Positions 42,001 to 51,515 of a stretch of 64,000 bases of DNA are shown here, piece by piece. Position numbers and translations under genes: made by a program. The DNA lies in assembly GCA_022703585.1 (NCBI GenBank), contig JAKLDJ010000001.1, positions 374,891 to 438,890 of the forward strand. The letters are read 5' to 3'. The notes beneath the pieces were generated by a model, which saw only the letters and a list, made by a program, of their open reading frames with translations, did no database searches and was not told where the DNA came from. How positions within the stretch are numbered: position 1 is the first letter of the stretch; every line of letters starts with the position of its first letter. This DNA comes from Candidatus Omnitrophota bacterium (GTDB lineage: Bacteria; Omnitrophota; Gorgyraeia; Zapsychrales; JAKLDJ01).

Positions 42001-42558
42001 GACCGAAATCTCTTCTAAGGTCACATCAATGTCGCGGGCCATTAATAAATCTTTAAGCGCGTAGATACCGCAGTTTAACGGATGGATGTTGGGATCCCGC
42101 AACCAGGAATAAATTTTCCGGATGCGGCTTGAGGTAAAGAAAATGTCGGAATTGATCAGAATGCTTTTTTCGTCTAATTCGGTATCAAGCGGTGAAGAGG
42201 CGCGGTTGAGTTTGAGATTGATTTGCGGATTTTCTTTGTAGGCGATCTGCCTTAAGAAACTTTCAACATTTTCGGCTATTCTTGCCGAAGACATTTCGGA
42301 GGCAGTGGCACTGGGGCTGACATAATGCGCGCCTTGATCGCCCCAGAGAACCAAGGGATTATAATTAACCGCCCAGCTGACCTGGTCGGGAACAAAAACA
42401 AGGACTATAATCAGGGCCACGGTTCTGATCCAGCTTTTAAAGCTGCTCTTAAACTCGGGCTCAGAATTAATCTCGGGCTGGAGCTCGGGTTTTATATCAG
42501 ACCCTAATCCTTTTGGAGAATCTAAATTAATATTGTCTTTTTCTTTATTTATGTCCAT
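1..42558 (-). CDS. Giant multidomain protein, at least 14,186 aa within the window. The 5' end (ATG at 42558) is inside the window; the 3' end lies beyond the window start, so the CDS is partial.
   Basis: Start ATG at 42558..42556 (revcomp of cat) preceded by GGCGAGAGGCGAGGTAGA (GAGG-type RBS). Every 60-nt printed line is 20 in-frame codons. Hand translation of about 15 separate stretches (42558-40621, 39241-39720, 32281, 29401-29760, 17461-17880, 13081-13740, 12241, 5221-6960, 3541-4860, 2461-2820, 601-1200, line 1) shows no TAA/TAG/TGA and consistently protein-like sequence. No minus-strand frame-0 ORF is listed in the track anywhere in 1..42558, which is expected if the frame has no stop and runs off the window. 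The antisense strand carries dozens of 60-220 aa ORFs, typical of a stop-depleted antisense of a real gene. N-terminus verified as MDINKEKDNINLDSPKGLGSDIKPELQPEINSEPEFKSSFKSWIRTVALIIVLVFVPDQVSWAVNYNPLVLWGDQ... Confidence 0.85.
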   Translation of the reverse strand, partial: MDINKEKDNINLDSPKGLGSDIKPELQPEINSEPEFKSSFKSWIRTVALIIVLVFVPDQVSWAVNYNPLVLWGDQGAHYVSPSATASEMSSARIAENVESFLRQIAYKENPQINLKLNRASSPLDTELDEKSILINSDIFFTSSRIRKIYSWLRDPNIHPLNCGIYALKDLLMARDIDVTLEEISVATLLVDILSNIIQPGEPKLKTSLYAINKVVKSYGLDFTTLKLSPEEILKLKTPFIANFKSEHFVTVTGMDDDNVYYTDIGRALSTPKEKFAEELSGFVLAPGIDDAIRTMAVTDSMMAFVWGSQWISRSDQLPGITSTQDLLIGAGVQTAFNLATGGTMGMMNVYSAASNFYGTLSQVGVMKWGWDPSTAFIVSTALSVATMYVGGKMEARSAARSAQAAGESLTPAQNALANQSATATFFKGLGAGLGLGLATGYIKLKMAQWVEKWGIFKKIKNPMVRNSVVGAVSSFGTNIVMTPLVVLSDSKLGTDYRETFNMGERDDLTNEFTPYGLGDAMKQTLVTSIPNLTGSIASAYMRQWLYEKYNINPQSNFSLGLSQIGGQVGSSLGSLAARYTIGKGDSKDLQLDEADTRTGFWGNFKRITSAVLMSALPAGVGALLDSIEQHNMKGAWNNGTRNKTGLSPMEMRTLALLTTSLATGLGTALVDKFIFPSQDFSGVADDKEKTEKQADTTLASDTGFWGTVISVSTNRIQLAAYNYYTVGGTAPNKFGQYGTPGIGGRSGINDFNSYTAHLAEMSGITPEFVIRSKALWEDMKEINNEKPSDERLNDEELKESYNRQILSGINPAANQLQYFFSSLNAGTINNATAFLEATFFTPAMYGIGSLVANKDSNVAAIEKAITDKGIALDSPEGKREFQERLAYKKSAVVLGIAEWTGFTPRRMARIESKGIRDITVDPRNVFEVVLNDGTKQTMSWDEAKDKGYIDANGKIAAQSNDAGEIIYAAQGVRSIAMLGNVNVTYQDGSSVRVAEAFAREQGLIDADGKAKPGRIGPSKNIVFAYEQDFHNGNKTWHLANPRFLKNGRNLNTIRMSMPHDTDKVTVTYADGETKMLSMAQAKKEGLIDKDGNATDKIAGAQSFIDPGQTIINLPEDLSEADQAHLGIFRETLMLKNQDGSAVPLVGPDRLSLDAGVVSPSGENTELTGLFSQRFNDVMSKGRTMTVAGGFENEKSPLMARFSYKKSPETDSKTRNPLTDSKGNITHWQWNSQVKFKNGVAQNISGQHGRNETTDEFIADKFISTYRVTGETIVSNGEIAIFNDLSLSKVAEKGKSDSYQGNAELMRFLKVAKGEGSAVANVQAALDQDVANLTGKTEEAVEWNLANVGGVGLVFLPAKVRRTVGASLTPEQEAEVTKHALGSDRAVDLTNELISGLANVPGGSENVNLGWQVVAQAMDVNAKGKLLAKDATPTTLFYRQGWKSRGATTVWDVEYFGTPTNDSRQTVMVNGDRTAFGASIWRIADGVDAMGTLVKGSTALNQEQQAQMDALQAQGLQEAYEAYESSGGYSKAGLMAALAAYAPTQAALDSSKSYLAMAALGGAGNKRGSLYSEFRQGDKTKSAQGVVDGGYTATDVNSGNEYTFLLYGRGQFIQYEKGEAVNRNISSAPSMPPAGGNASTATTNASTALASNTMASSASEPGASSQTTANAITNAAAQSNANVGTGMTTETSLESPNPETGDTNISSTTPGIAPVAGYSAGGEQAGKTKEELQARETQTQNAIRIFGEKKAKEVIGRDGTVADRTLLFGSLANPSGAEIFTAEESIQGKTPRLIIRDFKVFEDKGTFRYNGLGYAPNDTGRGIQDAIAVVDDQGISYYPKGDGSKPMSVNWRAFEAMVRAAELTKEQARIINESMAKESGSEGPASEHQPYGEVSPLPGGESFIGPLFLEGENSPTEVPSLSGGSTYIASVRLDGFTQSDIVRGDGKPIDLYDSSTEIENPKAANSRGELHYVPNSAKEYSVDANGQEVPGSLRMLSTEKVDKLAWDQNGPVVRLAGISRFPLDVITQDADQNAPASAAGENKNPQVSGVVTISGAPTYRMNLATGQAQPWFFAKADGTQDKSEEKPIFDQQGNLIDTGEVEAAGEQYAPYSVDLLSAVGTGVASMNPITDNTRYYYSGDKQSPQLTLVNTPTRSLGIFANGGVDYIRGQGMYVHDGTDSQLTLNKDSIPFHRFGYFLDGKQQYVYKYTNPHFVDTSKTQIVVAPDGTESIQVINQEKTLTIVATKGLFQDRTSNYSDLNLNGATAEVRATATGANGAIDVYAGEFIPAADGSFAKSHIAAGTKPDGTDSRDLVNVLPGNSGGEKMPVEPPSETAVVNPPPVGSGINPDQWAVASFGESAKREILDRQLGPNAPQNERDALDRIKGELRDGKRESRGVYALGVPVSDGKGGTVMVLNGTFNAAGGGPDSYYELGRGADGGENADGRFDPASGNTIPLNSDYGDNSGQIRIGLYRTDSDAAQLTSAGVWVDDQGRRKLFGLDVIRGMAWRNNATGAGRSFLDGGFGIADNAGLLQPQMQPEVIVTAERPEIPFAVAQPSSLSVNPALLRTGITTASALSEPVDFDVEIGPGAYEAARNHATWTHGEIGTPLSFSGTVEFTQDFEFNGVVPSRLNPGEQPFFVHGGTILTGDRNNRDTASTQGGYGEGWTSKDGRLAFIFSEGAVNLPSSYRTLGAVYHKTHVATGSEIGPADNTAGQEDSDSDFTPQVTRVNKGDVSAKRIRVTLGNGSTTALTWYGFNPAAKQHQFVSTLGDAKTTVFGTGVQDAGQAIREEGGLIFFRPDSNGQFAVMPTTPEAKEFLDGVKAKMSEYVRVRSADGAEGYVPKEHWADRTEEQEAPQGYFDRALFAAGKFNMGKPDGGRGDNDVMLQEVGEDGKSNGLWRRVDKSQFLGTIRLGGEEKNILTKLGKAVAPGLAKIGLGPQGDLAFSADVYSGGDIAIEDQSGQKVSSGLFDGIDGSYRSGDYFALGFNGGRDTGIVLDQDVIHKGLGFLAREETDSYGNVVGFGGPLRYDSFIKNEAIMAKFSGRMENFSGTVDAISLIPVFKLVGFGVKEGVKLGVSAAVKAGAKAAGTEAAEAVAKTAAVEGTEVAAREAAQVAARAAAKTAEAELAATAAQQLNANQRITLAAAKALARVNAAEVPGASFTRAAVKTSVFSLAAGNAISLGVTGKPLSFEDNIRAVTSSLGILTLGRMASLPMNTANLYAKGFMGSMKGIRPHLIGLGGAIVVGSVGGGIAEKIKSRTAGPGGVNLRPDYSAAFLKGAIKAAAVYTGFMFGLRPIFASSLSVKQAFGSVGVSAISLGVFQAANELGDPTNERTWGHALSRGKGGAIAGAEISAGLLAFRGITKLNTDPNPKNPHFVGKYLDQMTNNVANQKTFTTVRNVAGRWTAGGAAAWAYGSYKEKKLISPFSAEGGLLLVSGIALSAILLGKGSVKGYLAGGVKNLGEMKPFTLTSSMASGAIGFAEAGLIWEGSKLGFNGIKNLLTGNLPQYEGDDLLRRKAEFFVGQTVLGSIAGGFESGPFLGPVLGVTMPQAIAPAGRLAAGEKGILGWASLLGRGVKKGIDKKREGQGFFSFSPADLIGKTAKTGEYISFVHRTFGKQIAKADSLAAFLGLNDLLTAAEYKVLSRSYAAKQGIEVEDIPEAMANQLKTKAGDRALWRSVLLLPNAGGMGGVEKRIDSRPDSGNSGDRLRTDIDSPTTGGDPTARADRIEALTKTSLARAGQRAQAGDLAAAGHNLARAAGLALAGEQALRAIPTPAPSPSAERVTPAEGAIPQEASSLGSSETRAPPSAEIAERISALRKVRLQATNLIDNVNTLLSETARPQESLAAERVSLTQDLEAAQHTLGSVESALATNAAELARAQKISTSADQTLSRRQAVADRASARAADATTRNQGTHQAVRAETRAADALAKSDRAAQDAYADMALTGARVTGEQSVLEAQRARLLGDIATAQQGLRAIDGVRSREHYQQAAADARAQTLALAEATVSELSQPAASPSAEVARRSTLITANNILERINTSLSETARPQESLAAERVSLTQDLEAAQHTLGSVETALATNAAELARTQRASTSADQTLSRRQAVADRASARAADATTRNQGTHQAVRAETRAADALAKSDQAAQDAYADMALTQARVTGEQPVLESQKARLLGDIATAQQGLRALDGVRSREHYQQAAADARAQALQLAEATVRDAEAGRLPSTLEAYRHLSESADLLSPTARPQESLDAERASLTQDLQAGQDTLGSVESALATNAAELARTQRISTSADQTLSRRQAVADRASVRATDAATRNQGTHQAVRAETRAADALAKSDRAAQDAYADMALTQARVTGEQSVLEAQRARLLGDIATAQQGLRALDGVRSREAYQGLAEQARAQALELAKATVAEAGNLPSTRDAQRRLAEAADYLSQVARPQESLDAERASLTQDLQAGQDTLGSVESALATNAAELARTQKASTSADQTLSRRQAVAARASARATDATTRNQGTHQAVRAETRAADALAKSDRAAQDAYADMALTQARVTGEQPILESHQGRLLGDIATAQEGLNGLEGVRSRENLQGLTQSALAEMSRMARESYQRAEKEGATEAPAMSTVRASESSPVSRPAMQIVDSQTGDVLFNLPGVEAPAVSELAKPAARPAAEVPAASDLARPADTMAIGTELSRPAETVEFSTPTTRELGLLRSAFQEHIPAKDLSHIDFIIKGVVKNKPNATPGEIVRIVSGMLGDQILNNFLLPDAQFLHQYVAALQRGESISLQNAVPLVAKAGSAETVAPELAQPTLTAQDHFRLGESQRAAGELSSASQSFRTAQRLATEMGDSSLANRSRDQRMEILSQRRASRAVTPALAEVSGVSEAPATPVLAEPVTPAAAPEAPAPAPLQLVKSPKPAPAQTRDFVSRAMDKLRSSAASKAATIALTIGLTSSALLMSDTNLRANSRGPEQLSSRPTTEFVVQSPDTGKALASETPAAPMISPEQTELYARTLDQFENSRSQKQQELSKLNPDNLPYDAWLDPATNPQGVIRGSLTFQEGFKARIFADALREIGLQRVSNNGGTQVIAGAINDQPFRFYFHTLERKEGLPEGGIYRAAGEDSINIIGYSGHSASDALQDPSVALAPSETNEKVCFNFACFTDAFRSDMFEKWGTDVQYVSVNRPGDTYLNAEYFKQAVVGMSRHENWAQIGARADRNMPSDYARYVISPADGGVSVDLNRNMWIDRVERNISRSAIEQLSLLLPDSSGASYDATLSNRTLYLDYKVKTALGWDKELDQYKDSTWFAGWFKSPNPDEHVRVARDGKDLYFAINADHRGDLSNELIMATLYHLGEKIGELEGKDSDYGKALGLRMAFDHANSFLGGSFDAFRAKNNIPAGITEDMIETARKWNSPGARQEAMRTIASNFKADAATRKTAQPTEAIAATPAQKPASAVVEAVTLASSPLPATVQDTPKAPAAPAPLPGSPLSDASLPVLTGLLGLGIFLGAKNRNRGLSGEGDSRLAKPATRSTTESPMAKPKVRRNSGDVTLYSGVPLDAETLGELGRTVAGAARGLRELGRKASDRVSERIRERRSEDRLARVDSKARPVIGSDGPSAAKVAELMTSGGEDLSVQGAGFHPDIPKFLKKGYGSPDAKDIGQKEGLQLLTRAIERARSTTRVLANIAKGGSKSTLGVALVGKQAVSEGGMAFVIDNAGAIDRSMPEIKKMLEGEAVVERWNSDLTEADKLDLIARTDVLMLTAKQAEAFRLSESDAIWDALYAKSKGIAWQYDAEFKPYQVPMQRGGNQQEIASPKGVYEAAELAWTARKEGKIIYGEDGTASASPQLVDQVLGKLGVETEARARGEKQAEFARFVSAVEEAAKPTGHLQGDRVLTTDLDGAASPAVVMADPYKAAVQDAITRIIARENGIRVSRQGPIFVGTSVDRVRVEDFWSKFSERGFTTRRIDATGNDLSDLSGQAELALRGGELLVPESRMAGIREVPGFDVGRDTALRSRDGKAISLNSGFQETASEMAVGGRAVFVDAAGREGHTALEVQDAARRYAVSKGTDMVVLGALEGPSGSERFILRDPSKPVTESNKRPLTQEEFDLGMQNPDTKWTVLLSQPRAMGDTVDMLGLKTHPKDTLIVITNEFTRGKLASQALIRGRAPIREQGAKADYAHPELIPRKIIALDVVNFSDPAKYIEHMEGPVQRSFDRTATAQATFEYGQRQGIMRQERWEADAATDAERGALQQIRDKIAQSNHALRHSSLAEPAKEAKKTIESAIEETVNSANRVIREHFRMHPEQLRELSPRTRAEVESIMRGEQDIRITLTAESGDLSKGISVQEAQTPKEFEQAVNARLSKDMVPTYSPGFREGQMLVERVVTAEVVKPVVAADQGLVASRAPPKVIVTTAINGANGPEIKSYRSENPFFVVIPGTLPSSELQNPGAGIQLGPNQMFVPSNGSVPLGLIPQFGFIYNKDNDKNPVAIAVPLQEGGFVTAAIKDNSRFSLQGSVAIVTHENDSQISIPVREVYSVDTTAGTHSLLHREIGELPQGIQEQDLLGVKTGDRITEHGYVVSIADVGNADPAKVKAVHYAGTLVPVDSATHQFTAPFLTGFSDDIKIVEQTYQITDATKEVGDPVQYTIEGRGDLLKGLGLPGGSASQEIVSVTVGREAFAKAMEIPSRRFDEIFSRIVENGIIRQEVNTTGRSVKATTDIKAGQTGFEELQAAKADLEMAYRVADALEGLDDQESVQLRQEALEAARIIQMQIDPANKGGHIFFLSELDQDAILERTEALLRRNLVSEQAMQSLSAQDRQEKLTPVELARFMYQMEAEDTLMGAHAGGAGKNLDNIYITRTAANAKTHFEAVGQPLLAQASYEARMASAILHEAISRANTKRTHSENVRIERDMRTILASLPAVQLVPVDRDTDLRQAARERIQKRYDRNVFIAKKGFTDVQTEQGPIQREINIFSRVSLDDSGNVKLEELKGEDVKTILSGGVVLFGKGDLLPSDENARRIAEVARVDVETFALPSAPAIGQANIPAETSNLGGALPAPMQQSFPGSVPFVPGLLLPPMARGNLGQDVPGQMKEQALRADQTRRDLYALEQEAPLADSVPSLAGDGLLESGGLLKGESRLPGGDLAASAALAGDIALKADRTNQREPANKKYGGDEWLRASLDRVDGDLRVLAAEADVSYSTAVDWVRNLRNNGGDPTGKYAALVATASKARQQEVGLKGDRYPGDSIMSGLIASTRASTAEIAKARGVSETAARRYIKRYIDGDPRQRQAEFDRARGQLHKPSFDYPGHYKMAQWIKQGDGIQTQIAKNQGVSQSTISKYFEVFNEDANRRLFLKQVRTEADFKKRTGQPLNSALTSYLVDHPDTPTLKELEAALKVPPDILKTYLRDRKFVSGVLYALLLKKGEIKVSELRRKSTGTGLLSSAIKDHGLSNVFAFTHKKFHPYILDYFGIYDPRGPAIALSQAQVKTRVRDYLKALHPDRVKHALEPQLKKAGLSEDEIWRIANAQFMAIRNNGDLLLNHWTWWTRAGFAPSSAVMSRPAVARIARAVLSRRNTPQSGMLLGSGPIESAAAAPAVKVMEAAAGSKMVRTSEMAKPVSVQAMATAPMAELKLQEVSDTNLTADNNRDVALKADRSPIPSTTKVAGTSLLAQAEPQQHLAVNIESLLNGGARIRRDVLLLTSEQLARLEPGTTIVSIDGKTAVVGRDKISLDTRYNALAYGFPLENIKSIRPLPMPGQPAQARPVTDDRIRELQGMLSDSGDDNSYDADFTQTMQELWTISLTNPGLTPQVATALIESAKNNAGYRTSRALVDFSKVNPEFTEQAITTLDEIARDNPHNIYTPDALVAMVRGNPKITDRIISALESQIAINKHAAGALARTITDMPPYFTKQVYSMLKKNIDWPGVLQALAWMATVVPDYADETKSILKQEAVKGNMEAAEALVGALPKKKGKPQAFVMTARDMTPQFTKQLYSVLKSHIDQPAAPWALVQITNELDKPGVAQALARIATAVLKNHVNKPGVSKALAWIAATVPDYAAETKSVLEQEVLKGNMDAAGILAAFDMPAFRMENLSLPVIEKLASHGRHYSPRAAWQFILKAPSMAEPSPRAARIRAAQKEISNLIAQFENLAKEDGRRTDKKMVRDLREKIALPIFELAGKPVSEQSFPKMVTNYYRVPDLNIIRTVALRGNAGQELVKNRLLHRLGKVDDTRPLAVVVYPKSDHNNALLNPTNATALTKHYRVLYYEASTPDEMVSALKDATNLEDPARYQPASLVVIAGHGTRGSIQFGPKETDVLTMPVVLKKLQRAGLSRVLTADGKVMLDSCSTGAQRWYGGKNMADALARIFQRPVTAPNKPTSSRMTVNTNTGRPLAEINYTRAEKYVALPSGNNDSLVDRVRWMLSGILAQRMPVPAFTEASDNLSSRIAMTSKRQALEANPTIDNSRGDVALPANKETGDGQSSWLHLSINGTRIDIRPSDLIGLIVARQNRFGQLEDFQPMLDKVGLDHAVISQGLEKAAVDVVRYKIETVKEGYQVTKQGPVFTYLDEGGALAAFAIDRAVPGNSSYLADPDYDIVVKIPHEDLNFYSKKILAPELARGYDIIKNRLGPELTGAIVLEDVSLMIRGGHVPRKIHQYPFVFVQQKVETFANFRDRMNQEREAALAKSTTEKERAAVNRNYDKAIEDFQNDIISLRAEMARRGVIDLDVVNVARNYGRTIGPNSRVVVIDMDYLAYGEDAVHNLKKAVENYPHRVPIIVSKKVAAPADLSAEWRKGWQSRIVDMQADRSWPEFIQPELQVQLNEPYVDSIHKYWATTLQEFEAAWKSQDSTALNNSQRAVPPFYVEVTRAQEKYLAELIRESAKLGMDLPFGTDTPANGQGDISLKANRIKEEIPLTQSSQVTIGAPTVSNLSAVAQPSQPEPLSDIRAGSAMPPLPELKSGSVAVPQAPNALPETQILPPSIMTAPMPPALAVPPIASLNGTKPRWVNTAMPKPRLGIDNVPLLAFADTDNGMRQSRFDFPQSPIDSPYNTPSQKRKEAPAPTAPGPVSMPVSPQPTGNDGSSSGSSKAPVSVVAYQQGIGASSADIVKAPQIAFNNQQGFKNEILLKVKDGSKLTSGIHDNSTKPSGTLAVSQTGLNKSARQKAMDLVVRVFGSASTFTAMVANIAKALARRSESSEADFIGNVLAGNGLQKNSRRQSADKVQGARGLRLVIEGQAVEISGSARPVIGNDGEDSLVVRSFDILAANGSLSRTLPVTGLPKAGNALVVCDVLLRDTAKATEVNEEPATEPATSKPRSAEDVRNAVEETRNFKAEENSFAVESAHTNSAEIARRASLSLVTPVTPSNLPENNINSQDLSVIISKGRASNRNLRLGSFTQSAESRRASPVVDVRASDNLFNNGDLAYVGNPSSNASVQVSATTLYSFPGMLFDKDLWKGLFGNRGSARGRIPSPAVDVRASKYTRGNDVALTATRTDAERDSVRPFGYQSVIHEAAQQLVTYKEQYALRCLGEAVAYAAFSDVTPKQALAQFLTNNNIPESEKKSISAIIGKIVSDDTQETLVKFMRDARANMEDSERPLELQSKQIEATGMVFANFGGVVIEWPTGRGKTFVSTAGRASFQLMEALENRPFKSKSLILAPDITNMPRAAVYDAYLRTVSAVKLADGKPAVRVGIVLDDFSVWTYADGVAEMSLKEAEETAKQAGSYKALLREVKMADLTQDFDIVVMPQQTFLNIAKGHNEEAAAVSADTNETQAVAAAAVQSPEKIKGSKDYLSAFKPSVNDGKNRIIWDDAHIAVTEPGLIDSIRIDPERQLTDANFKSGWNLMRLFREVIKEVELRRSDLDSTHRPSPIVWGQATHPNGTTIPREAVNEQVKKEIMAHLQKLVPGLNLKEEKWIREEFEEAVDVAIMSLLDKETRDIYRTFEFPDTNGETVTGIIVHVIEKNEKVPYIMDAETGYREALSGSSHRMETEKGIRYFTSNSDSDVLVRFEGGTTGSDKVFILNEKDLVKFNYRLAQEGDSRPTHIHGSAVKAALTALKSGAGNIEAMKHYFSLRGDMTDIFSIKRFLVGKDAPTPLVLMTATPVRGPLEVLGFTNANYLQLDRVDMDSKLRMAKYIRVSAGNILEASIQGITQALRESKSVKVNKPNEVFEEWPVRVTVLVTQSGDDVYKAVARLTELKRKGAFAGDDVRIEGVEGSIGDAKTKKMDELGKVIRSEYADSSKDSRKHLIVVVNKLNDGTNLLALATDAAKAYAARIVRIGSKHTAVADVQLIGRAGDRTKKIFDDFRAPAEDMMAYIDEARIGPAERGLLVRVDIQREELKKQFPAGSSQLKSELEKLSEVEQDLFRQFAKNRGIIEDFEASLRAARQMAGVKDTSRITDVRASHTPSDMEMEQINHTYNQRFGALANLPSETKNQAAEDVARQGQIRGAPAAAIDEVSEVASSLIEAPQAIRDVLSTLPQDSDIAAFVNTLFDANKNGLFRNYNSKKPSREQSEFIDTVKNFVLAAKYGFVGTDAFGRVIELSEKGRKLSDTFKAYKAENRTSAQGQSDLVALNSAIDTVIREHRAEVIGNVADEAGLGSALDSQWNEDLLNIYLKSDGRSWRDREAVLEALNSYIARYQVAKPEGDEHSAAVVNAAKLLRTNVEDEKQKREDTEHRTVALVRKAAVSNAVKFLVKHPNFGGFLASLVLLPIAHSESISSSVIDARYNRNKVIKTLAYIYTPLNKSFNTMSPWLTELRAHKNPLKKMFSSLKTHPFHGYLLWNLTKNQMPQRAEKIDLTFKQLAEMGKAILGDKGRKENTLNGMALAGMLSNQDFERAGKAYDLLENSVPAAKQEKVLGNWTLRKFFTLMSNDYENKKGPEEGILAARGLWRLTLSAVHHVKGGWLKDRSDLGIYRGTLEYWMAKQARGLRKKGNSDGRITIALFNYSADKNSPLWKIVKKFKKEVKKDLVQEKGQSKESYQLEVERQARARAEKALKPYLFGFDYDEKANQAFKELQQRADKRDEKFDLGPITAQNLRDGNIPVDIEKENKRKERKWKSITDLASSRELEDIEEEFTPAERTRLGKMLQKKDGLERLWNALKDPAQYGQDEFLQRLRKIWIGVPDADLAGRFKATKEEKAILRAVHKGSLEREEASSDLIESAQRAAMALNRPDIALFLEGVSKSQTLGVYVVSCEKGDKRFSGKTSAFGQQGIYIFAEKDAQGQEPVALTRLNQRAKSLVDQTKRLGSADNAQYARNAAGLEADVLKNQHIDEANIMLALPGVNDTLNDGAKSRILSLMVGERTQGLEETVKHYRAVARDMLKAVKPKMDAVDASFVQKGISLVREFSRQVLPFMQDKEGRSIEGWQQYEAVTKSSSMHLGAVPEPGEGLKRITSQDGSMVVDYAGPDLTDEEKAQILKTRQARHVVEQTKRFVDMTPSLGQKKSYSEQIRGLARALNTLKDAAEIFGLDRISAIADMSQARSEVTDAMVRQGERQFFEGLGKILEKDDEDGLANKMIKQLKNPAVIVPFVRNHIVRDLEEFIAFRQAKERSIESQQAFLEHSSLRWMADKVRVLSNEELFAVKEALAEKKVSDSLLTLVANLSGISRNSERAMPPLKLTRAMIERHFDNVRDGRSEAGRILWSEFNESDINQVLAQFDSSMAGYTVSRVELDVLSLSLKERVQKFQNALKAKGYLPESYKVKGKMDITTQAAYEKFAADETAEDREYIEDLHTSATIKQAHISQGPSLVYLRAPDEQDGYLAAVVLSEHGQLLGKEKEDGTVDFYGFPNKEEFFAAFKNGGNVIFSVNGSYAGSLLVRDRNVAQRMQGTVSSNAKRLDLKAALDINKEKTDGTVEKRTIKSDMGEVSGIKFFKGMHLNHEQLKSWFNLSDWQASRAHNPGKPVRVTKWNLAVPNLSVAVFLLMKGSFMAHLTYGVLGYFGQKMGVTSKTHGATQMGNALLGMGLWGFAKTGTGVAALGSIAKSIGVSSVVIAGAEISAVTVMVMAITASLGIALSVASHLLKQYASDSMIANIDKFTLYGESAFKTHDLFRLPKRISSNRTQIRGSLTMIVPLAGSAYFFSAGATLPGIIAAAMLPVIAIFINHEPRHSIEAARFGKVTSKMEFTAMGGLATIKGLSELTPAKAFWVAGVGPIGDTFLMGPTWFTIGLMQSGFGLLPAVAGVAGFYSLMYATHRLTAKSSALRVMSYFVPAVYLAAVLATGNLSIVGNHLPAAAHDGSVFQLWDYISKNLVHASSLGQINNAMKDISGIRELLGNLNFFTQLGTLTVMLGFFNGLPIHPMDGGRMLQAFLEPTDYSGLGSKLWRIGFAGAMFAVPSAIFLGAGGMIPPVFGSAFVINVAIYTFPQFIASVVNAFKENSLETTQTIGLVGGGLFVLAAVSSQNLMVGIMGVSLALQNLTQIMGVKPHNREGLHSGLPSLDLRKIREDRGVVAEQTPAPAPAEPKSIPVNVPANGVPPVAPTPNGGKGLPMHFAPATNMPVLYQPIFTLGEARTGVRVIYRTAGNSTGIHGNSTSAGPSSHKGVGVDNESATAVSNPTRTIPGFISFISGVKPRLNAVSSFNGIHNIPTQNDYNQKPKQSPANLQSKFAEISSRRIVGTDHGGALWTLDHQTPVTRHQSPVTGQTTNTLHSITLLNLAETIASLAPAAKRLLAKLGSSLSSITTGKFTPAMGKKTPGKLSMPMTQKLFASLPATPALSGIKLGETSSLNSFVPFVFAFGMAQDADSVIAQLGWERNVAKDAVKLMATMNIAEGDTVVFVGGRYFMEPMIAAAAFGARVISIDPIYENCDNPAMARSHSAELVPAQYISLVEGIEFISERLGELSGATKALLAGAGTIKGIVALNVIDDVYPDLAVEILYDALELISDRGSIALSVGLPRYEWKIDDAREALELLAHKIGGWRVEKIAENLQTGKTYYNRATVFQVIKNLVDAGPSMPLAGIAIARRMSDVEINIARYEERYRAMMSDFNEEPFSLNPVSQALVERQRNMTVAEAVEIYVKAVKEYGVSQDKGRYEGRDPVMLFGEPKAWCDIYGNKVAGSAGMAELLKESGRDERIKEAVLQSGIITIALNFLQERIKSGELTADESRKLFNQAADNLNAFNLVALPFAALMGLFTLAAQARVEEAGESSGHWAQLSLSEFNAARERVLWAVRHIGATYPVRQGNTRTALITNTKFILDLFRNPNRERTRFFIMAFNELWGGRENANRTLLRTSLGRVINMSPLFWAPVSKTGFYSSLHSVDYTLQVIEHEMAVTLLAREILKNKQLCAGAAQIALADFVGLSHDLGKLDEELITVFSDRRRYWKEGDPVHGNDQVLSKVDTERAREHGQISIDLLRVSGIALPEGAQEVILSMHAPKPAESFRLVSSVMRLADGFDGILDTLRPYHRELRERVRNGSSISAEACRTFVIQRQYLRLMESSVFELPIYLALVELFEKKDPTFMAVANRTREDLVELPTPRSLTQILRPMKLAEGEAVYGFSLLAPVAFTVMALGFMSYDIVRFFNKHIRDRKPVQISSLKKTWPLVAVPVVAAAGAMYMDPIAVEKTALVTGIIGAAAAVAGITKIIVDSRRKSAPRQIRAMAVRRGQREQTRREFLSLMVKGAAGLAVAGSGVYGIAKKVVEIEEASRIRKEAEKAEQAMADFKARLTEAAYRLDSFSGSLNNTRTFSTMIAVLSTLLPRGKKEELVAGWNLRPEVAKDQERFTANLANHPERISDLLETLIYAGTIDRLEVFYAQLMRRSDANTAQALGQARIALKRGMTDRERKNPTLYYVLTAQDKAAARRTLSFVRFADLARAHGIPSEGIIAIWMMETPDQSRITINSNRYFTLERKGLGKSTGWDMGVSQVKGRNFEKFFGSLEGSRNPFNAEDNTTVAIMLLKDIHDRISKMIGSRMSDADIWRLAFGIYHIGQDTDVNDAIRECLNGSADKISYEKMLACISRGQNTNAHWYASNVDATRLVLNEVIALTQELPGLKIRMQEYKTVAAVADHSNLQASMPGILPLIIASLALAKMISMVRSSVRDRSQAKSGPASTRSNRAEAGTVPVNSLPPATTIPAPKLPVAPQVPNQFKGFNPIAPLMMPVHMILGALNNLFGAGTAYADEVGKNEQVLQNGFEGARPGSVMAAPVAQSVAAVKTSKARLLAVNPAAVVRLALLTHHFVSSHIYS
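28750..31050 (-). repeat. Four tandem in-frame coding repeats, unit 582/588/615 nt (194-205 codons), about 90% nt identity, inside the giant CDS.
   Basis: Anchor string cgccggtaacacgggc recurs at 28905, 29487, 30075 and 30690. Flanking strings (ttgggttaaagccatgtcggcataggcatcctgggc..., ctaattcagcggcattggttgctaaggcagattcaacactgcctaaggtat) recur with the same spacing. Spacings are multiples of 3. One verified unit translates to ...TLGSVESALATNAAELARTQRISTSADQTLSRRQAVADRASVRATDAATRNQGTHQAVRAETRAADALAKSDRAAQDAYADMALTQARVTGEQSVLEAQRARLLGDIATAQQGLRALDGV... (Ala/Gln/Arg/Leu-rich, predicted helical or coiled-coil). Confidence 0.85.
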
Positions 42559-42720
42559 TCTACCTCGCCTCTCGCCTATTAATGTCCAGACTGGAAATTA
42601 AATTAATAGGTACGACGACTGCAGCAGAATTAAAGTAAATGTTTGTTTTTTGATTTAACCGACGGACGGAACGATAAAGGCCTTTGCAGGAAGGCCGGCT
42701 GAATTCGTGGGAATTTGAGG

Positions 42721-43721: not shown

Positions 43722-44720
43722 TTATTTTACACCCAATTGTCTCATTGGATTATTGTTGGTAAAATCGAGGAAAATAGGGGCGCCGACAAGAATGGCGACA
43801 ACGGGGAAAATACAAAACAAGAGCGGGACCAGCATCTTCATGGGAGCCTTAAGGGCAATTTGTTCGCCTCTCCTAAAGCGGGCCACGCGCATATCTTCCG
43901 AAATGATAGTCAGGGCCTCCGCCACCGAAGTACCCATGCGGTCAGCCTGAATAAGAGTGCGGGTAAATGTGGTTAAGTCCGGCAATTCGTATTTTTTTCC
44001 TAAGTCGGCTAAAGCAACCCTTCTGGGTTTGCCGACATTAATCTCCTGCATGATTAAATTCATCTCGTCAATTAAGACCGAGGGCTTCGATTTGTCGACA
44101 ACCCACTTGAGAGCCAGCATAAAATCCAGCCCGGCATTAACGCACAAGCCCAAAAGGTCGATGGTGTCGGGAAGTTCTTTGACAATAGACTCTTTGATTT
44201 TCTTCGTCCTGGCCTTAAGCCAAAACTCCGGTACCAAATAACCGAAACAAAAACCAAAACCCGCCCAGGCAAATATCATATCCGGCTTTATAAGCCTGAA
44301 GGTAAGGGCCAGCACCGCGGCCATGCATAATTCTTTTATGAGAAAAAATCCTTCCGGGGTAAGGTCAAGCTTGGCAATATTAAGGTCCCTGGCCATTCTT
44401 TTTCCCAAAGGGCCGAGGGTAAAGGGCCGGTTAAACATCGAAAAATGCCGGAATGCCGTCGAGAGGGTGGATCTTTTTTTCTTGTCAATCTTGACCTCGG
44501 GCTCGACATTAAGCGGCTGCAAACGCAGGCGCGTCGTCGGCGTCTCAAAGGGCGCGAAAAAAAGAACCAGGCAGATAACAGAAAGAAAAACAAATCCTAA
44601 AATAATGGCGAGCATAGGCTCCTTATATAAGACCGAATTGACCCTGCTTCGCCAAATACTTAACATGTTTGGCTTCGCAGGGTTATACCCCCTACCTCTT
44701 TGTTTCGCTTCGCTACACAA
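43722..44720 (-). CDS. tadC: TadC-like Flp pilus assembly inner-membrane protein (T2SS F-domain family).
   Basis: 332-aa ORF with a polytopic membrane profile and a C-terminal GspF/TadC-type region (...LIQADRMGTSVAEALTIISEDMRVARFRRGEQIALKAPMKMLVPLLFCIFPVVAILVGAPIFLDF). Sits directly downstream of the tadB-like gene. Confidence 0.75.
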   Translation of the reverse strand: MCSEAKQRGRGYNPAKPNMLSIWRSRVNSVLYKEPMLAIILGFVFLSVICLVLFFAPFETPTTRLRLQPLNVEPEVKIDKKKRSTLSTAFRHFSMFNRPFTLGPLGKRMARDLNIAKLDLTPEGFFLIKELCMAAVLALTFRLIKPDMIFAWAGFGFCFGYLVPEFWLKARTKKIKESIVKELPDTIDLLGLCVNAGLDFMLALKWVVDKSKPSVLIDEMNLIMQEINVGKPRRVALADLGKKYELPDLTTFTRTLIQADRMGTSVAEALTIISEDMRVARFRRGEQIALKAPMKMLVPLLFCIFPVVAILVGAPIFLDFTNNNPMRQLGVK

Positions 44721-44739: not shown

Positions 44740-45597
44740 TTAAAACTCCTTAAACGTACTGATCCTCCATATCATAAAAACGCCCAAGACCTCCAGGAAA
44801 ACAGCCAGAATAAGAAGCATTCTCCCCACATCAGAATTAATCAGCTGGTCAAAGAAATTTTTGTTGGAAGAAGTGACCACGGCCGCAAAGGCAATGGGCA
44901 GGATCGACATGACCACTCCCTGGATTTTCCCCTGAAGGGTCAGATTATCGATATTTTGCTTAATCTTTTTGTTTTCCCGTATGGTGGTAACAATGCGGCT
45001 AAAAATAACAGGCAGGTTGCCGCCGGTTTCTCGGGCCAAAAGAATCGCGGTAATCATATGGTGCAGCGCCGTCGAGGGCATCCGGCTGTAGAGGCGCGCA
45101 AATGATTCTTCCAGGGAAATCCCCATTTTGTTTTCGCCTAAAAGGGTCCCGAATTCCTGGCTGACGGGAGCGGGCATTTCTTCTTTGACCACCTCCAGGG
45201 CCTGGATTAAGCTTAAGCCTCCTTTTAAAGAGCTGGATAAAATCATCAGGGTGTCTACCAGCTGGTCTTCGAATTTGGCGGTGCGCTTTTGGGTCAAGAA
45301 TTTAACATAGACGCTGGGCGCCAAAAATCCGACGACAGCGCCGGCGACAACCCCTAAAAGCTTGATCTCGGCAGGAAACGCCATAAATCCGGTAACAGCC
45401 AAAATAATGGGCCCGACCGTGTAAAAGAGTATGACACGCCTGACCCGGACCTTGATAAACATCTCATCCATGCGTTCGGCAAGTTCCCGGGAACGTCTTT
45501 TATTCATCTCTTCGATGTTTCCGTAGATGGGGGGAATGACCGAAAAAGAGAATACGGCCACGGAACCGAATATCAACAGCATGATAATAAGCCACAT
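44740..45597 (-). CDS. tadB: TadB-like Flp pilus assembly inner-membrane protein (T2SS F-domain family).
   Basis: 285-aa ORF with N-terminal TM helices and a T2SSF-like core (...LGENKMGISLEESFARLYSRMPSTALHHMITAILLARETGGNLPVIFSRIVTTIRENKKIKQNIDNLTLQGKIQGVVMSILPIAFAAVV...). Paired with the tadC-like gene, 19 nt apart. Confidence 0.75.
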   Translation of the reverse strand: MWLIIMLLIFGSVAVFSFSVIPPIYGNIEEMNKRRSRELAERMDEMFIKVRVRRVILFYTVGPIILAVTGFMAFPAEIKLLGVVAGAVVGFLAPSVYVKFLTQKRTAKFEDQLVDTLMILSSSLKGGLSLIQALEVVKEEMPAPVSQEFGTLLGENKMGISLEESFARLYSRMPSTALHHMITAILLARETGGNLPVIFSRIVTTIRENKKIKQNIDNLTLQGKIQGVVMSILPIAFAAVVTSSNKNFFDQLINSDVGRMLLILAVFLEVLGVFMIWRISTFKEF

Positions 45598-45642: not shown

Positions 45643-46047
45643 TTAGTTACATTGTGGATTTGCACAAGGGGTCACGCAATACTCGTTACAATGCTCCTCG
45701 CAGCAGTCGGCATTATGTCCGCACGCCGTGTTGGGGTTAGGGCTATGACTGCCGCAAGGATTCCAATTATTATGATCCATGCAATTATGTGCGCATTGAT
45801 CGGAATAGTTCGTATGGCATTGGGGGACATACCACCTTCCCAGGTCTTCGCTCCAGATGCATTCAACCGTTTTTTTAGGGTCGTATTGCATCCCGAAACC
45901 GAAGGAATCGGCTGACGCCTTCCAGCGCCCGGCAAAACCGCGCAGGACATACTGCCGTCCGGCGACAAAAGCCGCGATCAGAATAACGATAAGCATCGTG
46001 TATTCGATCATGGAAGCGGCTCTTTTATTACCTTTACGCATCGTCAT
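45643..46047 (-). CDS. Flp-like pilin paralog with a Cys/His-rich C-terminal extension (12 Cys in the last roughly 60 aa).
   Basis: N-terminus MTMRKGNKRAASMIEYTMLIVILIAAFVAGRQYVLRGFAGRWKASADSFG parallels the xxxxEY plus hydrophobic helix plus RGIQGRWK pattern of the flp array genes. C-terminus ...CHTNYSDQCAHNCMDHNNWNPCGSHSPNPNTACGHNADCCEEHCNEYCVTPCANPQCN. The start overlaps the stop of the upstream TadG-like gene (TAATG), indicating translational coupling. Confidence 0.55.
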   Translation of the reverse strand: MTMRKGNKRAASMIEYTMLIVILIAAFVAGRQYVLRGFAGRWKASADSFGFGMQYDPKKTVECIWSEDLGRWYVPQCHTNYSDQCAHNCMDHNNWNPCGSHSPNPNTACGHNADCCEEHCNEYCVTPCANPQCN

Positions 46048-49000
46048 TAAAATTCGTCACTGCACCTTGAAAATTTGACGTTAAACCCGTACGGGTCCTC
46101 CTGGTGAAAGAAGTACTCCGCGCAGGTTTTACTCATTACGCCCCGGTAGAGAAAGTGGCGTACAATATTATAACACGCCGTTATCTCCGGCGGATCGGCA
46201 ACATCATTAATCATAAAAGCACCCTGATTACCGGGATCACACGCGGCTTCCAGTTGCGTAATACGTTCCGGGGTAATGCTGTCCCGGTCCGCGTGGTGGG
46301 CAATAAAGCGCCAGATAGGAACCTTGTTGGCAAACGTCAAAAGGGCGTCTTTGTCCTCGTCATAGCGGATAACGCGGGATTTGACCGCGCCGCCCCTGAA
46401 ACAAACTCTGGCATTGCTGCCTTCATGATACTCCCCGGGTTCATCGCAAGCGCTATTGGGCGCTCCGTCGGAGTATTGGTCAAAACTATCTCCCAGGGTA
46501 TAGCATTTGCGCGTACCCCAGTTTTTAGTATAGGTCTTAATCCACGGCCAACTCGGCTCATGGGTATAGCCCTGAGATGCCCTCGCACATTTTCCGTTGC
46601 ATCGGGTGGGCAAGCGCGCCTCAACCTGCACAATATGCCAGTAGCCTTTCCCGGCAAACTGCCCGGGCCGCGGCGTCTCCGGAGGGTCACTGCGCCAGGC
46701 GTAAATCGCGTATGGGGCCAGGTCCGCGTCGTCCTCAGGATTCACATTGACTCTGTTATACTCAGTCGTAACACCCGTGACTGCGGGACTGTTAACAAAA
46801 GTATGAAATGCGTCTCTATAGCGGTTGAGGGTGGCGATAACGCTGGTGACATTATTAATTGTCCTGTCCAGAAAATCCGCACGAAAACGATGCATGGCGG
46901 CCTCATTCGCCTCGCCATGCCAGTACTCCTGTACACACGCCAACTCAGCAGCCTGACAGGAGCCGCTTAAGTTGCATGGGTTTCGGAGCGAATAGCAGGC
47001 CGGATAGCTGTAGTTGCAATGAGCATAACAGTCGGCGTATTGGTTCGCAGTAGTATCATGCGCCGGAGCCCTGGTATTGCGATGGCAATCGGCGATCTGA
47101 CTAATTGTGCGGGCGGGGTTGTAATTCGGGTTACATTCGTAACTACTATTTCCGTGATAACTACGATTAGCCCAATCCGAAAGAGTATTGCTCCATTCAT
47201 TAAAAACACTGCCCGAACTCCCGTAATCGTCCAATACCCCGCCAGGCCCTACCCAGGAAAGAAATTCCGGGTACCAGGATAGAAATGACCTCGCAAGTTC
47301 GTCGGATCCTTGCGCCAATATCCCTAAACTCCAAGAAGTAAAATCGGTGAGACTGCGGCGAAGCAAATCGGCCTCATCTTCGCTCCAAAGAACCTTGTAG
47401 TACCGCTCGGGCCACGTCCCCGGGATGCTCTCGCATTCGTTACTATAAATCGAACAGATCCCGGCCGACTCTGTACATGAGGTGCAGGTCCTATCGCACT
47501 CCTTTCCCGGACAGGGGGTGCTGTAGGGCCAGTTGTCGTCATCTTTGGTGCAGTATTGGACATCACCTCTTTTCCACCATCCCGGGGGATACGTTGATTC
47601 ACCGGGACATTTTAGGACTTCATTTCCGTCAGGGGGAACAACGGGTTTTCTTATTCCTGACGCGTTGGGAACATTATCAAAAGTGCTGGGTACAAAACAG
47701 GTAAGCGGCGACGCATTATCACATGCGTAGGGGAGCTCGAGATGGCCCACCGCGGCATAGGGAAAATCATTATTATTGCAGTAGGCATAGGTGTTATTCC
47801 AGACATATTGCGGTGTAGCCCAATAGCAAAAATCAACATAATGCTCAAATTCATCATAGATAGCGCTAAAATCAAGGCTTGCCCTGGCTGCCGCGTCCCA
47901 TAGCGTCGGGAAAAATGCCCCTTTCAGGTCATCGCGCCTGAAACGAAAAGGATGCGTGGTGCGGTCCAAAATCTGCGGCCCGTTAGGATTGAGCGGGTTT
48001 GTCCTGTAATACGGTGTTTCATCGTCGTGGCCAAGAAACTTTCTAAAAGACAAGAAACCGATATTCGGGTCTTCATGGAGGGCATTAAAGACGTACGGAT
48101 AACCGCCCGTAGAATACCCGCCAGCAATATTGGGATAGATACCGGAACAGTTTGCTGAGCTGCCGCAAGAGGGCGTAGCGGGATCGGGACAATCAGAACC
48201 GCCATCGCAACAGCACGGCCTCACGTTTGGCGGAACACAGCAGCGATTGCATTCAGCGGGAGGATTGGCTCCGCAACAAGCGCTTGCATGCTGCGGAGGA
48301 ACGGGCGCTGTGGTTTCGGAACAATAAATCAGGGTAGGATCCGCAACCGCAAAAAGGTCGGTGTGCACGACCCGTACCGGCTCAGGGGGCGGATTAGGAG
48401 GAACCGTGGGCGGCTGTTCATAGTATATGTACGGCTCTAAGAGAAACGCCCCCAGGGCCCTCTGGAAATCCTGCAATATGTCACGATTGAGGATGCGCCT
48501 GTTCGCAAATTTTGCGTTCATCCGCTGGGTGTAAAAATACCCGAAACGGTTGACCTCTTCGTTGAGTATACCGTCCATGTCGATGTCTTTGGTGTCGAGA
48601 AGCTCGCTGGTATCATCAACGCTATATTGAAGAGCCATCTGAATTCCGCGTTCGACAAATTGGTCTGCCGGCGTCTCAAGCTGTGCCATTTGTTTATTCC
48701 ATAAGGAATTCATACCGGGCTGAAGGACAAGCGCCTGGAGCAGAATGGAACCAACCGAGAGAATCAGAAAGATAATTCCTTTAGCGGTAGCAAATGCCGC
48801 AAAGGTAAGCGTCCCTCCGGAAGTAATGGAAATAACAGTGGCAATGACAAGAATGATGAGGGCTAGTACTGCCGCTGCGACTCCTGTCCATCCGCAGACG
48901 GTTAAATCATCTCCGGCGTTAGGGTCGGGATTTCCCTCGGGCCCGCCCAACTGGCCCTGATAAACACTTTCGGCATAGCTGGCCATACCCGAGGCCAAAA

Positions 49001-49298
49001 AAGCGGCGCTGATATTGGAGGCCATGGTCACCTGGGTTTTTGTCTGCGAGATTCTGCCCAGGTTGAGAACCACGGCATAAAAGATAAATAAAATCGCCAC
49101 CATCACAATCAGCAATAGGGCTACCTGACCCGCCTCGGCTCCCCCTCCATCGCTTCGCGACGAGATCTCGGCGAAGCCGGACCTCGTCGAGCTTGCCCTG
49201 AGTCCCTCGATTTTGCTCGGGATAAACTTCGTCGAGGCTGGGCCGGTTCGACTTGAGGATAAAATCTTCTTTGTTATTTTGTTTAAAAAGCTAAGCAA
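46047..49298 (-). CDS. Giant TadG-like pseudopilin or tip-adhesin candidate, 1083 aa, with a cysteine-rich ectodomain.
   Basis: The N-terminal segment ...GAEAGQVALLLIVMVAILFIFYAVVLNLGRISQTKTQVTMASNISAAFLASGMASYAESVYQGQL matches the TadE/TadG N-terminal helix pattern. The remainder is Cys-dense (for example CCGANPPAECNRCCVPPNVRPCCCDGGSDCPDPATPSCGSSANCSG) with many aromatic residues. Confidence 0.65.
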   Translation of the reverse strand: MLSFLNKITKKILSSSRTGPASTKFIPSKIEGLRASSTRSGFAEISSRSDGGGAEAGQVALLLIVMVAILFIFYAVVLNLGRISQTKTQVTMASNISAAFLASGMASYAESVYQGQLGGPEGNPDPNAGDDLTVCGWTGVAAAVLALIILVIATVISITSGGTLTFAAFATAKGIIFLILSVGSILLQALVLQPGMNSLWNKQMAQLETPADQFVERGIQMALQYSVDDTSELLDTKDIDMDGILNEEVNRFGYFYTQRMNAKFANRRILNRDILQDFQRALGAFLLEPYIYYEQPPTVPPNPPPEPVRVVHTDLFAVADPTLIYCSETTAPVPPQHASACCGANPPAECNRCCVPPNVRPCCCDGGSDCPDPATPSCGSSANCSGIYPNIAGGYSTGGYPYVFNALHEDPNIGFLSFRKFLGHDDETPYYRTNPLNPNGPQILDRTTHPFRFRRDDLKGAFFPTLWDAAARASLDFSAIYDEFEHYVDFCYWATPQYVWNNTYAYCNNNDFPYAAVGHLELPYACDNASPLTCFVPSTFDNVPNASGIRKPVVPPDGNEVLKCPGESTYPPGWWKRGDVQYCTKDDDNWPYSTPCPGKECDRTCTSCTESAGICSIYSNECESIPGTWPERYYKVLWSEDEADLLRRSLTDFTSWSLGILAQGSDELARSFLSWYPEFLSWVGPGGVLDDYGSSGSVFNEWSNTLSDWANRSYHGNSSYECNPNYNPARTISQIADCHRNTRAPAHDTTANQYADCYAHCNYSYPACYSLRNPCNLSGSCQAAELACVQEYWHGEANEAAMHRFRADFLDRTINNVTSVIATLNRYRDAFHTFVNSPAVTGVTTEYNRVNVNPEDDADLAPYAIYAWRSDPPETPRPGQFAGKGYWHIVQVEARLPTRCNGKCARASQGYTHEPSWPWIKTYTKNWGTRKCYTLGDSFDQYSDGAPNSACDEPGEYHEGSNARVCFRGGAVKSRVIRYDEDKDALLTFANKVPIWRFIAHHADRDSITPERITQLEAACDPGNQGAFMINDVADPPEITACYNIVRHFLYRGVMSKTCAEYFFHQEDPYGFNVKFSRCSDEF

Positions 49299-49361: not shown

Positions 49362-49625
49362 CTACCATTTGTTGAAAACCAAGTTTAAAGGGGTCGGTTT
49401 GGAAAAATTCGTTCTCAGCTGTCTTAACGGGCCTTCGCCCTCATTCTCCCAATTCTCGTTGATACCCATATTCAGAGTAGTTTCGTGGGCGACCTGACGC
49501 TCGGATAGGCTTAACCCCACCCAGCGAAATGCCATGATGCACCCGTAAAAAATCAGAAGCAGGACAACAAAAGCAAACGTGAATTCGATGATAACCTGCG
49601 CGTCATGTTGTTTAGAGTTTTTCAT
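49362..49625 (-). CDS. tadE: TadE-like minor pseudopilin (87 aa).
   Basis: MKNSKQHDAQVIIEFTFAFVVLLLIFYGCIMAFRWVGLSLSERQVAHE... shows a TadE-like N-terminal hydrophobic helix after a charged leader. Confidence 0.6.
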   Translation of the reverse strand: MKNSKQHDAQVIIEFTFAFVVLLLIFYGCIMAFRWVGLSLSERQVAHETTLNMGINENWENEGEGPLRQLRTNFSKPTPLNLVFNKW

Positions 49626-51179: not shown

Positions 51180-51494
51180 TTAGTACCCAAACACCTTCAT
51201 GGAGCCGTCTTGCCGCTCGACGGAGCTGGAATCATCATACCGGTTCGTCCAAAATTGGCCTGCCCCTTGCTGGACCGTGATCCTGGTCTGAGAATTTTGC
51301 TCCATGGTATACAAAATATTCGTTGTCGTATTGGTACTGTCGTACTGATCGCCTAAGTCCTCAACCGAGGCCTTCCACCGCCCCTGGATAGCCCGCTTAA
51401 GATACACCCCTCCGACGATGAGGGCCCCCATGACCACGATTAATAAAATAGCATATTCGGTTAGAGACTGGCCGTTTTTTCTTATCCGCAGCAT
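51180..51494 (-). CDS. flp: Flp-family pilin paralog (104 aa).
   Basis: MLRIRKNGQSLTEYAILLIVVMGALIVGGVYLKRAIQGRWKASVEDLG carries the class-III prepilin motif G/QSLTEY followed by a hydrophobic helix. Confidence 0.65.
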   Translation of the reverse strand: MLRIRKNGQSLTEYAILLIVVMGALIVGGVYLKRAIQGRWKASVEDLGDQYDSTNTTTNILYTMEQNSQTRITVQQGAGQFWTNRYDDSSSVERQDGSMKVFGY

Positions 51495-51515
51495 TCCTAT
51501 CCCTCTTAAGTTTCT

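Follow-up and report, generated by a model that had tools for sequence, protein, structure and literature searches.

The protein described here is encoded in a 64,000-nucleotide stretch of the genome of Candidatus Omnitrophota bacterium (NCBI assembly GCA_022703585.1, contig JAKLDJ010000001.1, forward-strand positions 374,891 to 438,890), hereafter termed the window. Its gene lies in a locus resembling those of tight adherence (Tad, or type IVc) pili, all genes of which are on the minus strand (Table 1). The product is 134 amino acids long and joins a pilin-like N-terminus to a C-terminal module crowded with cysteines. It is probably a minor pilin of the Flp type that carries a variable, disulfide-stapled knob and resides with cysteine-rich neighbors at the tip of a pilus or pseudopilus, a reading to which a probability of roughly 0.6 is given.

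The open reading frame (ORF) is a real coding gene, because its homologues are 42–56% identical, the surrounding gene order is conserved, and an identical protein is already annotated. The identical 134-residue sequence is HOW35283.1 at NCBI, from a Candidatus Omnitrophota metagenome-assembled genome (MAG), and it recurs in other Omnitrophota MAG records. Start calls for the gene differ: the 122-residue form found in Logan and ENA (P0001) begins at M13, losing the leader and the cleavage motif, and the NCBI records give 134 residues. Judged by its homologues, the longer form has the correct start.

The N-terminal part of the protein has the layout of an Flp pilin. A basic leader runs into the sequence A10-A11-S-M-I-E15-Y16, which provides a small residue at position −1, glutamate at +5, and tyrosine at +6, the pattern of Flp and class III signal sequences. 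Processing by a prepilin peptidase between the two alanines is predicted from this motif. Residues 13–37 form a hydrophobic stretch (Kyte–Doolittle values of 1.6–1.9), and an AlphaFold2 model built on a 24-sequence alignment places helices at residues 9–29 (predicted local distance difference test score, pLDDT, of 91–96) and 31–54 (up to 96). The first ~60 residues are paralogous to other pilins of the same locus. BLASTP aligns them with a 104-residue pilin at 8e-13, through a common GRWKAS..D..G..QYD segment; with a 108-residue pilin at 1e-5; and with a 58-residue Flp protein at 5e-8, over residues 7–49. This smallest pilin itself matches Pfam Flp_Fap at 1.7e-7 and 31.4 bits, slightly below the cut-off. 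The Flp-like N-terminus proposed in the original prediction is borne out by these alignments, and the pattern also holds across the aligned family. Among the 165 family members scanned for motif statistics, 140 have an intact N-terminus, that is, a leader, the xxxxE[Y/F/V] motif with A, G, or S at −1, and a hydrophobic stretch. The residue at −1 is alanine in 81 of these 140, glycine in 55, and serine in 3, with glutamate at +5.

The C-terminal module is set apart by its composition. All 12 cysteines of the protein (residues 63, 77, 85, 89, 98, 109, 115, 116, 120, 124, 128, and 133) fall within the last 72 residues. The tail had earlier been credited with 12 cysteines and seven histidines; the cysteine count stands, although the string then quoted holds 11 of them, the twelfth being C63, and the histidines number six. 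Cysteine makes up 9.0% of the protein, compared with 0–1.8% of the ATPase, platform, secretin, and Flp proteins of the locus and 0.09% of the adjoining giant ORF. Cysteine richness within the locus is confined to the putative tip proteins, three or four in number.

In the AlphaFold2 model, the tail consists of a β-hairpin (residues 64–73), a helix (75–90), a low-confidence loop (91–112), and a second helix (113–128). A second model, of a typical 111-residue family member, has the same plan, and in both models a long, split N-terminal helix is predicted at pLDDT 91–96. The first tail helix holds C77, C85, and C89, the last two in a CX3C arrangement, and the second carries C115-C116-x3-C120-x3-C124-x3-C128 (CCX3CX3CX3C), both with i/i+4 spacing. 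The placement of cysteines along the two modeled helices suggests a disulfide-stapled helical hairpin. No domain is found in the tail by Pfam or NCBIfam, either in this protein or in 71 family members. Neither the protein alone nor the family profile has a significant sequence match in PDB, the best being to a pilin N-terminus at E=0.74, and Foldseek against PDB with the two models finds no fold match (best E of 4.7–5.9).

The family as a whole informs the state of these cysteines. The number of cysteines is even in 127 of the 140 members with an intact N-terminus (binomial p~1e-24), eight being the most frequent count, followed by 6, 10, 12, and 14. Such even counts indicate disulfides, and to judge from them the tail cysteines are far more likely disulfide-bonded than free thiols. 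CX3C is the most frequent cysteine spacing in the family, and the last cysteine usually stands 1–3 residues before the C-terminus. Six cysteine columns are near-universal in the family alignment. Correlations between cysteine columns are uninformative about disulfide partners, because the aligner forces cysteines into register. In the present protein, six intramolecular disulfides probably staple the knob. The earlier description of a cysteine-rich C-terminal module fused to a pilin is thus upheld, and of the two roles it offered for the tail, the disulfide option is the one favored by the even counts.

The two parts of the protein evolve differently. Members share the leader and its motif, the segment RG(F/I)AGRWKxxGDSFGxGRQYDPxxTxEC, a WY..C(F) hairpin, and a variable cysteine-rich tail. 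Family column identity is 0.52–0.64 in the pilin body, compared with 0.19 in the tail. Between the present protein and its three closest homologues, the body is 57–79% identical, compared with 13–21% at the non-cysteine positions of the tail. By these alignments, the tail evolves fast, with its cysteines kept and its other residues not. The even cysteine counts, the cysteine-lined helices, and the conservation of cysteines alone in the tail together support an exported, oxidized, and exposed module. A few members have very large tails on the same pilin body: 1410 residues with 141 cysteines and a Sushi repeat (35 bits) in P0111, 492 residues with 48 cysteines in P0122, and 346 residues with 46 cysteines in P0150; P0149 carries DUF4215 cysteine-rich repeats. 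Sushi and DUF4215 are extracellular disulfide modules, and their presence as tails in relatives supports the same conclusion of export, oxidation, and exposure.

The family is large, unannotated, and previously undescribed, in a locus that has already been published. A word-indexed search returned four relatives, and an exhaustive HMMER profile search returned 956 representatives at E<=1e-3, with 232 at E<=1e-10; no Pfam or NCBIfam model covers the family. A profile scan of GTDB contigs with a tight subfamily alignment found seven loci, five in Omnitrophota MAGs and two in MAGs labelled Planctomycetales. The latter (L011 and L015) are either mislabelled bins or a real presence in a sister lineage within the Planctomycetota–Verrucomicrobiota–Chlamydiota group. 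Seymour and colleagues (2023, PMC10066038) described Tad complexes and giant ORFs across the Omnitrophota, West-Roberts and colleagues (2023, bioRxiv 10.1101/2023.11.21.568195) described the same locus, “type II secretion-like” and conserved in front of giant genes of the Omnitrophota, and in a 2026 preprint 13 of 14 giants had secretion or pilus flanks. These descriptions go no further than noting that small genes encoding class III signal peptides are numerous. Cysteine is not mentioned in any of the three, and a full-text literature search for cysteine-rich Tad pilins returned nothing.

The position of the gene ties it to a large cysteine-rich neighbor. Its ATG and the TAA of the upstream 1083-codon ORF share one base, giving TAATG; this overlap with the stop of the 46047–49298 gene, reported earlier, is present in the sequence. 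A Shine–Dalgarno-like sequence was not found at the usual distance from the ATG, the nearest being AAGGTG ~17 nt upstream. The overlap together with the lack of a Shine–Dalgarno sequence at the usual spacing fits translational coupling, and the gene may thus be coupled to the 1083-codon gene. The start overlap is seen in the window and in the closest homologous locus (L003); the other loci have gaps of 13–38 nt. Gene order was compared in homologous loci mostly from Omnitrophota MAGs (L001, L003–L008, and L010–L015). Every one contains a block consisting of a cysteine-rich gene of ~420–640 codons, a gene of ~90 codons, a gene of ~1050–1300 codons with 38–72 cysteines, the cysteine-knob pilin, TadB, and TadC, and a very large ORF often comes next. 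The tight and consistent linkage in at least 12 loci supports the earlier suggestion that the pilin acts together with the large cysteine-rich protein.

Table 1. Features of the Tad-like locus and of the 134-residue protein, in window coordinates; below the rows for the protein, genes follow the direction of transcription
Feature	Positions	Strand	Basis
134-residue Flp-type minor pilin with cysteine-rich C-terminal module (favored reading)	45643..46047 (stop codon 45643-45645)	-	ORF list and translation, homologues, identical NCBI protein
Leader peptide, residues 1-10 (MTMRKGNKRA), with predicted prepilin-peptidase site between A10 and A11	46018..46047	-	Sequence; predicted cleavage
Flp-like pilin body, residues 11-62: hydrophobic α1 helix and conserved RGFAGRWKxSADSFGxGxQYDPKKT segment	45862..46017	-	Hydropathy, AlphaFold2, BLASTP, column identity
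Cysteine-rich module, residues 63-134 (12 Cys, 6 His)	45646..45861	-	Composition, AlphaFold2; no Pfam, NCBIfam, PDB, or Foldseek match
SurA-like peptidyl-prolyl isomerase (Rotamase_2), first gene of conserved locus	62901..63842	-	Pfam; in locus description of bioRxiv 10.1101/2023.11.21.568195
RcpC/CpaB	62048..62896	-	Pfam RcpC 8.5e-22
RcpA/CpaC-type secretin with C-terminal TonB_C domain	60353..62014	-	Pfam Secretin 2.7e-40, TonB_C 5.8e-17
TadZ-like (ParA/MinD) and TadA/CpaF (T2SSE) ATPase fusion, 719 residues	58192..60351	-	Pfam
DUF192 protein	57838-58182	-	
978-residue protein of unknown family	54438-57374	-	Pfam, sequence
Seven Cys-free Flp/class III-signal pilins (104, 114, 129, 108, 117, 64, and 58 residues)	51180..53729	-	Flp_Fap 1.7e-7, Class_IIIsignal 5.6e-6, 0 Cys
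476-residue Cys-rich (15 Cys) protein with pilin-like N-terminus (KGQTASELAIF...), candidate large minor pilin	49685..51115	-	Sequence, position
87-residue protein with TadE-like N-terminus, candidate minor pilin	49362..49625	-	Pfam TadE E=0.013, sub-threshold
1083-residue Cys-rich membrane-anchored protein, positional TadG/KilN analogue	46047..49298	-	42 Cys (3.9%), Pfam Tad E=0.013
TadB-like platform protein (T2SSF)	44740..45597	-	Pfam T2SSF 6.4e-18
TadC-like platform protein (T2SSF)	43722..44720	-	Pfam T2SSF 1.3e-13
Giant ORF of at least 14,199 codons, immediately after TadC and extending past the left end of the window	1..42597	-	Stop-free frame

RcpC, the secretin, the TadZ–TadA fusion, Flp pilins, TadB, and TadC make up a complete Tad-like set. 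The fusion of a secretin to TonB_C is unusual, and a copy of the locus at the Joint Genome Institute has the same architecture. The 978-residue protein has a weak N-terminal match resembling a helix-turn-helix, a long low-complexity middle rich in proline, glutamate, and lysine, and a C-terminus without a family match. Of the seven cysteine-free pilins, the 58-residue Flp at 53553–53729 is likely the major pilin. Positional counterparts of the 476-residue protein measure 420–640 residues in 10 loci; its C3 lies in the putative leader, ahead of a cut between KGQ and TASEL, and the mature form would have 14 cysteines. A gene for 85–93 residues occupies the position of the 87-residue protein in L001, L005, and L007; in the window, this TadE-like protein has a single cysteine, which is inside its hydrophobic helix. 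Rfam finds no RNA family in the window. The 10 kb upstream of the locus encode a 250-residue unknown protein and two-component/PAS sensor proteins.

The 1083-residue protein was previously called cysteine-rich and TadG-like. The first part is correct (42 cysteines); the second follows from position, size, a sub-threshold Pfam match, and a conserved N-terminal motif, GQVAVxLIxVxAxALIFYAVxLNLGRxSQxK, which resembles the N-terminal domain of TadG (“Tad”). A homologue search with this protein gave two proteins, and PDB gave no match. The term TadG-like is therefore a positional label, as homology to TadG is not demonstrable.

The closest model for such an arrangement is the Tad tip of the Myxococcus xanthus Kil system (Herrou and colleagues, 2025, PMC12075869). 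That tip is built of KilL, KilM, and KilN, which resemble TadE, TadF, and TadG; their helix bundle docks on the shaft, leaving variable domains exposed, and the tips are interchangeable. Two small Flp-type “adapter” pilins encoded with the tip genes, KilK and KilO, join tip to shaft and are needed to prime polymerization (PMC12075869). In the window, four pilin-like genes, three of them uniquely cysteine-rich, map onto this scheme. The 134-residue protein, which is derived from Flp, is most simply read as an adapter or a fourth tip subunit.

Like KilK and KilO, by their published description (PMC12075869), the protein has a small Flp-like body, a leader, and a cleavage motif, and its gene lies inside or beside a group of TadE/F/G-like minor pilin genes and not with that of the major pilin. 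KilK and KilO have ~59 residues and are fully α-helical, whereas the present protein has 134 residues with a 72-residue cysteine-rich module. The comparison with TadE, TadF, and TadG (KilL, KilM, and KilN), which have pilin-type N-termini and variable C-terminal domains at the fiber end, extends to its neighbors of 476, 87, and 1083 residues, which sit at equivalent positions in a tad locus. However, the protein itself has an Flp-like body rather than the β-stranded pilin fold of KilL, KilM, and KilN, and no Pfam TadE or Tad match; the Omnitrophota set also has four candidate members instead of three and is conspicuously cysteine-rich. With the Flp/Fap major pilins (PF04964), such as Flp1 of Aggregatibacter and PilA of Caulobacter, it shares the leader, the xxxxEY motif, the α1 helix, a short second helix, and placement in a tad locus. 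These pilins differ in having ~50–60 residues, no globular domain, and usually no cysteines, whereas the present protein has a putatively disulfide-rich module and a sub-threshold Pfam score.

Further parallels come from other proteins. Type IVa pilins have a C-terminal disulfide-bounded “D-region”, and twin-CX3C helical hairpins are found in α-hairpinins and the small Tim proteins. As in these, most family members have cysteine near the C-terminus, with CX3C on two predicted helices; they differ in having far more cysteines and no sequence or Foldseek similarity. The minor pseudopilins GspH, GspI, GspJ, and GspK of the type II secretion system (T2SS) are a low-copy, pilin-like set with one enlarged member, which caps a short fiber and is encoded near GspF-type platform genes. 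No homology to them was found, and the components of the present locus are of the Tad type.

Assembly would then proceed as follows. A prepilin peptidase would remove the short basic leader, after which the mature N-terminal hydrophobic helix and the RGFAGRWK...QYDP segment would take their place in the helical core of a Tad-like fiber, as in other Flp subunits. Residues 63–134 would form a compact exported module, a β-hairpin with two cysteine-lined helices. Through the overlap of stop and start codons, the protein would be made in step with the ~1100-residue cysteine-rich protein, and it would join the 1083-, 476-, and 87-residue proteins in a complex that primes and caps the fiber. Its place there would be that of a fourth tip subunit or of an Flp-type adapter between tip and shaft, and it would present a rapidly diversifying surface. 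Its role may be contact with a host, with prey, or with the secreted giant protein.

Several observations weigh against this reading. The score on Pfam Flp_Fap (PF04964) is 12.9 bits (E=0.097), well short of the 32.2-bit gathering cut-off, and TadE (PF07811) gives no match at E<=1; an Flp-type match at E<=0.01 is present in just 3 of the 71 family members scanned with Pfam. None of eight positional homologues of the 1083-residue protein matches Pfam Tad/TadG. Model confidence is moderate, with mean pLDDT of 72.9 for this protein and 77.3 for the second model and ~51–57 over residues 91–110. Many Omnitrophota are anaerobes. Neither the window nor the adjoining 10 kb upstream (L016, 1–10000) contains a Peptidase_A24 gene of the TadV/CpaA type; the peptidase that processes the pilins of the locus must have its gene elsewhere. 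Finally, the proposed tip location and adhesin role come from an analogy with the Kil tips of Myxococcus (PMC12075869).

Among the alternatives, the most credible, possible although unlikely, is that the locus is a T2SS-like exporter and not an adhesive pilus. A short pseudopilus capped by the cysteine-rich proteins would push or pass the giant protein through the secretin, with the knob touching cargo or secretin; the molecular role of the small protein would be the same. The locus lies directly upstream of the giant ORF of at least 14,199 residues, large ORFs also follow TadC in L003, L004, L006, L012, L013, and L014, and both the published “type II secretion-like” label (bioRxiv 10.1101/2023.11.21.568195) and the flanks at 13 of 14 giants in the 2026 preprint agree with an exporter. 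However, the ATPase, platform, RcpC, and Flp components are of the Tad type, a hypervariable tail suits an external target better than a conserved cargo, and the giant protein has an N-terminal transmembrane segment and a C39 domain of its own. In that protein the first ATG is at ~42558, and the peptidase domain (Peptidase_C39, 1e-7) spans residues ~217–298. The giant ORF has only 13 cysteines in 14,199 residues. It matches the published “Archaeovorin”-type Omnitrophota giant genes. The 1.1-kb gap between TadC and the giant ORF (42598–43721) falls in the stretch of the window with the lowest G+C content, 0.42 compared with ~0.50 elsewhere, and is possibly the promoter or leader region of the giant gene.

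Metal binding by the tail was the other option of the original prediction. A site for Zn, Cu, Fe, or Ni with a structural, metal-capturing, or redox role at the pilus is improbable. Composition speaks for it, as most of the six histidines that accompany the 12 cysteines in 72 residues are within three residues of a cysteine, and histidine reaches 4.8% of the mature protein, the highest value in a family whose median is 0.9%. Yet as a trait of the family metal binding lacks support: the histidines are not conserved, being absent from the close homologues P0002 and P0004, and the cysteine counts are even, as disulfides predict, and not multiples of four. The tail matches no zinc-finger, metallothionein, or heme motif. 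Exported pilin domains also normally carry oxidized cysteines. Narrower ideas were rejected as well: heme binding, since CXXCH is absent from the 166 family members checked; an intracellular zinc finger, as the conserved part is the pilin body and Pfam, NCBIfam, and PDB match the tail to no known motif; and a precursor of a ribosomally synthesized and post-translationally modified peptide, as the conserved part is again the pilin body and no maturase genes are present.

A shaft subunit, sprinkled or polymerized along the fiber to decorate it with knobs, is less likely than a tip protein and hardly probable in itself. In its favor, the first 55 residues make up an entire Flp-like body that aligns with the 58-residue Flp, and the locus has many pilin paralogues, but the gene is present in a single copy, apparently coupled to that of a low-copy 1083-residue protein, and keeps a fixed position beside the large cysteine-rich genes, apart from the Flp cluster. 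Least likely, and very improbable, is a secreted disulfide-rich effector, a helical hairpin resembling a toxin or antimicrobial that borrows a pilin-type signal for export: its twin CX3C helices recall disulfide-stapled helical-hairpin peptides and the lineage is inferred to be predatory or parasitic (PMC10066038), but a conserved 50-residue pilin body would remain attached after cleavage, Pfam, NCBIfam, and Foldseek find no similarity to toxin families, and the pilin body, as the best-conserved part of the family, argues for incorporation into a fiber.

The Omnitrophota are ultra-small, uncultured bacteria of wide distribution, for which a predatory or parasitic life is inferred (PMC10066038). 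The main clue in their genomes to the means of attack or attachment is the conserved Tad- or T2SS-like locus beside the giant genes. One member of the published class of small genes in this locus is now set apart as a distinct family, which combines an unvarying place in the locus with a conserved Flp body and a fast-evolving scaffold of probable disulfides. If the protein is at the tip, as the Myxococcus precedent suggests, it is a candidate for target recognition. Its small size also makes it tractable to study. The “adaptable tip” concept of Tad pili would then extend to a fourth, Flp-derived component bearing a cysteine knob. More speculatively, and with considerable doubt, the cysteine-knob pilins could be the specificity determinant of a Tad machine associated with giant genes, in which a hypervariable tip module scaffolded by disulfides, in some members enlarged to tails with Sushi repeats or of 1400 residues, would recognize particular surfaces of host or prey, or they could couple the fiber physically to the “Archaeovorin”-type giant during its deployment. 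Were they the specificity determinant, this small gene would be a marker from which the host range of an uncultured phylum of predators or parasites could be read.

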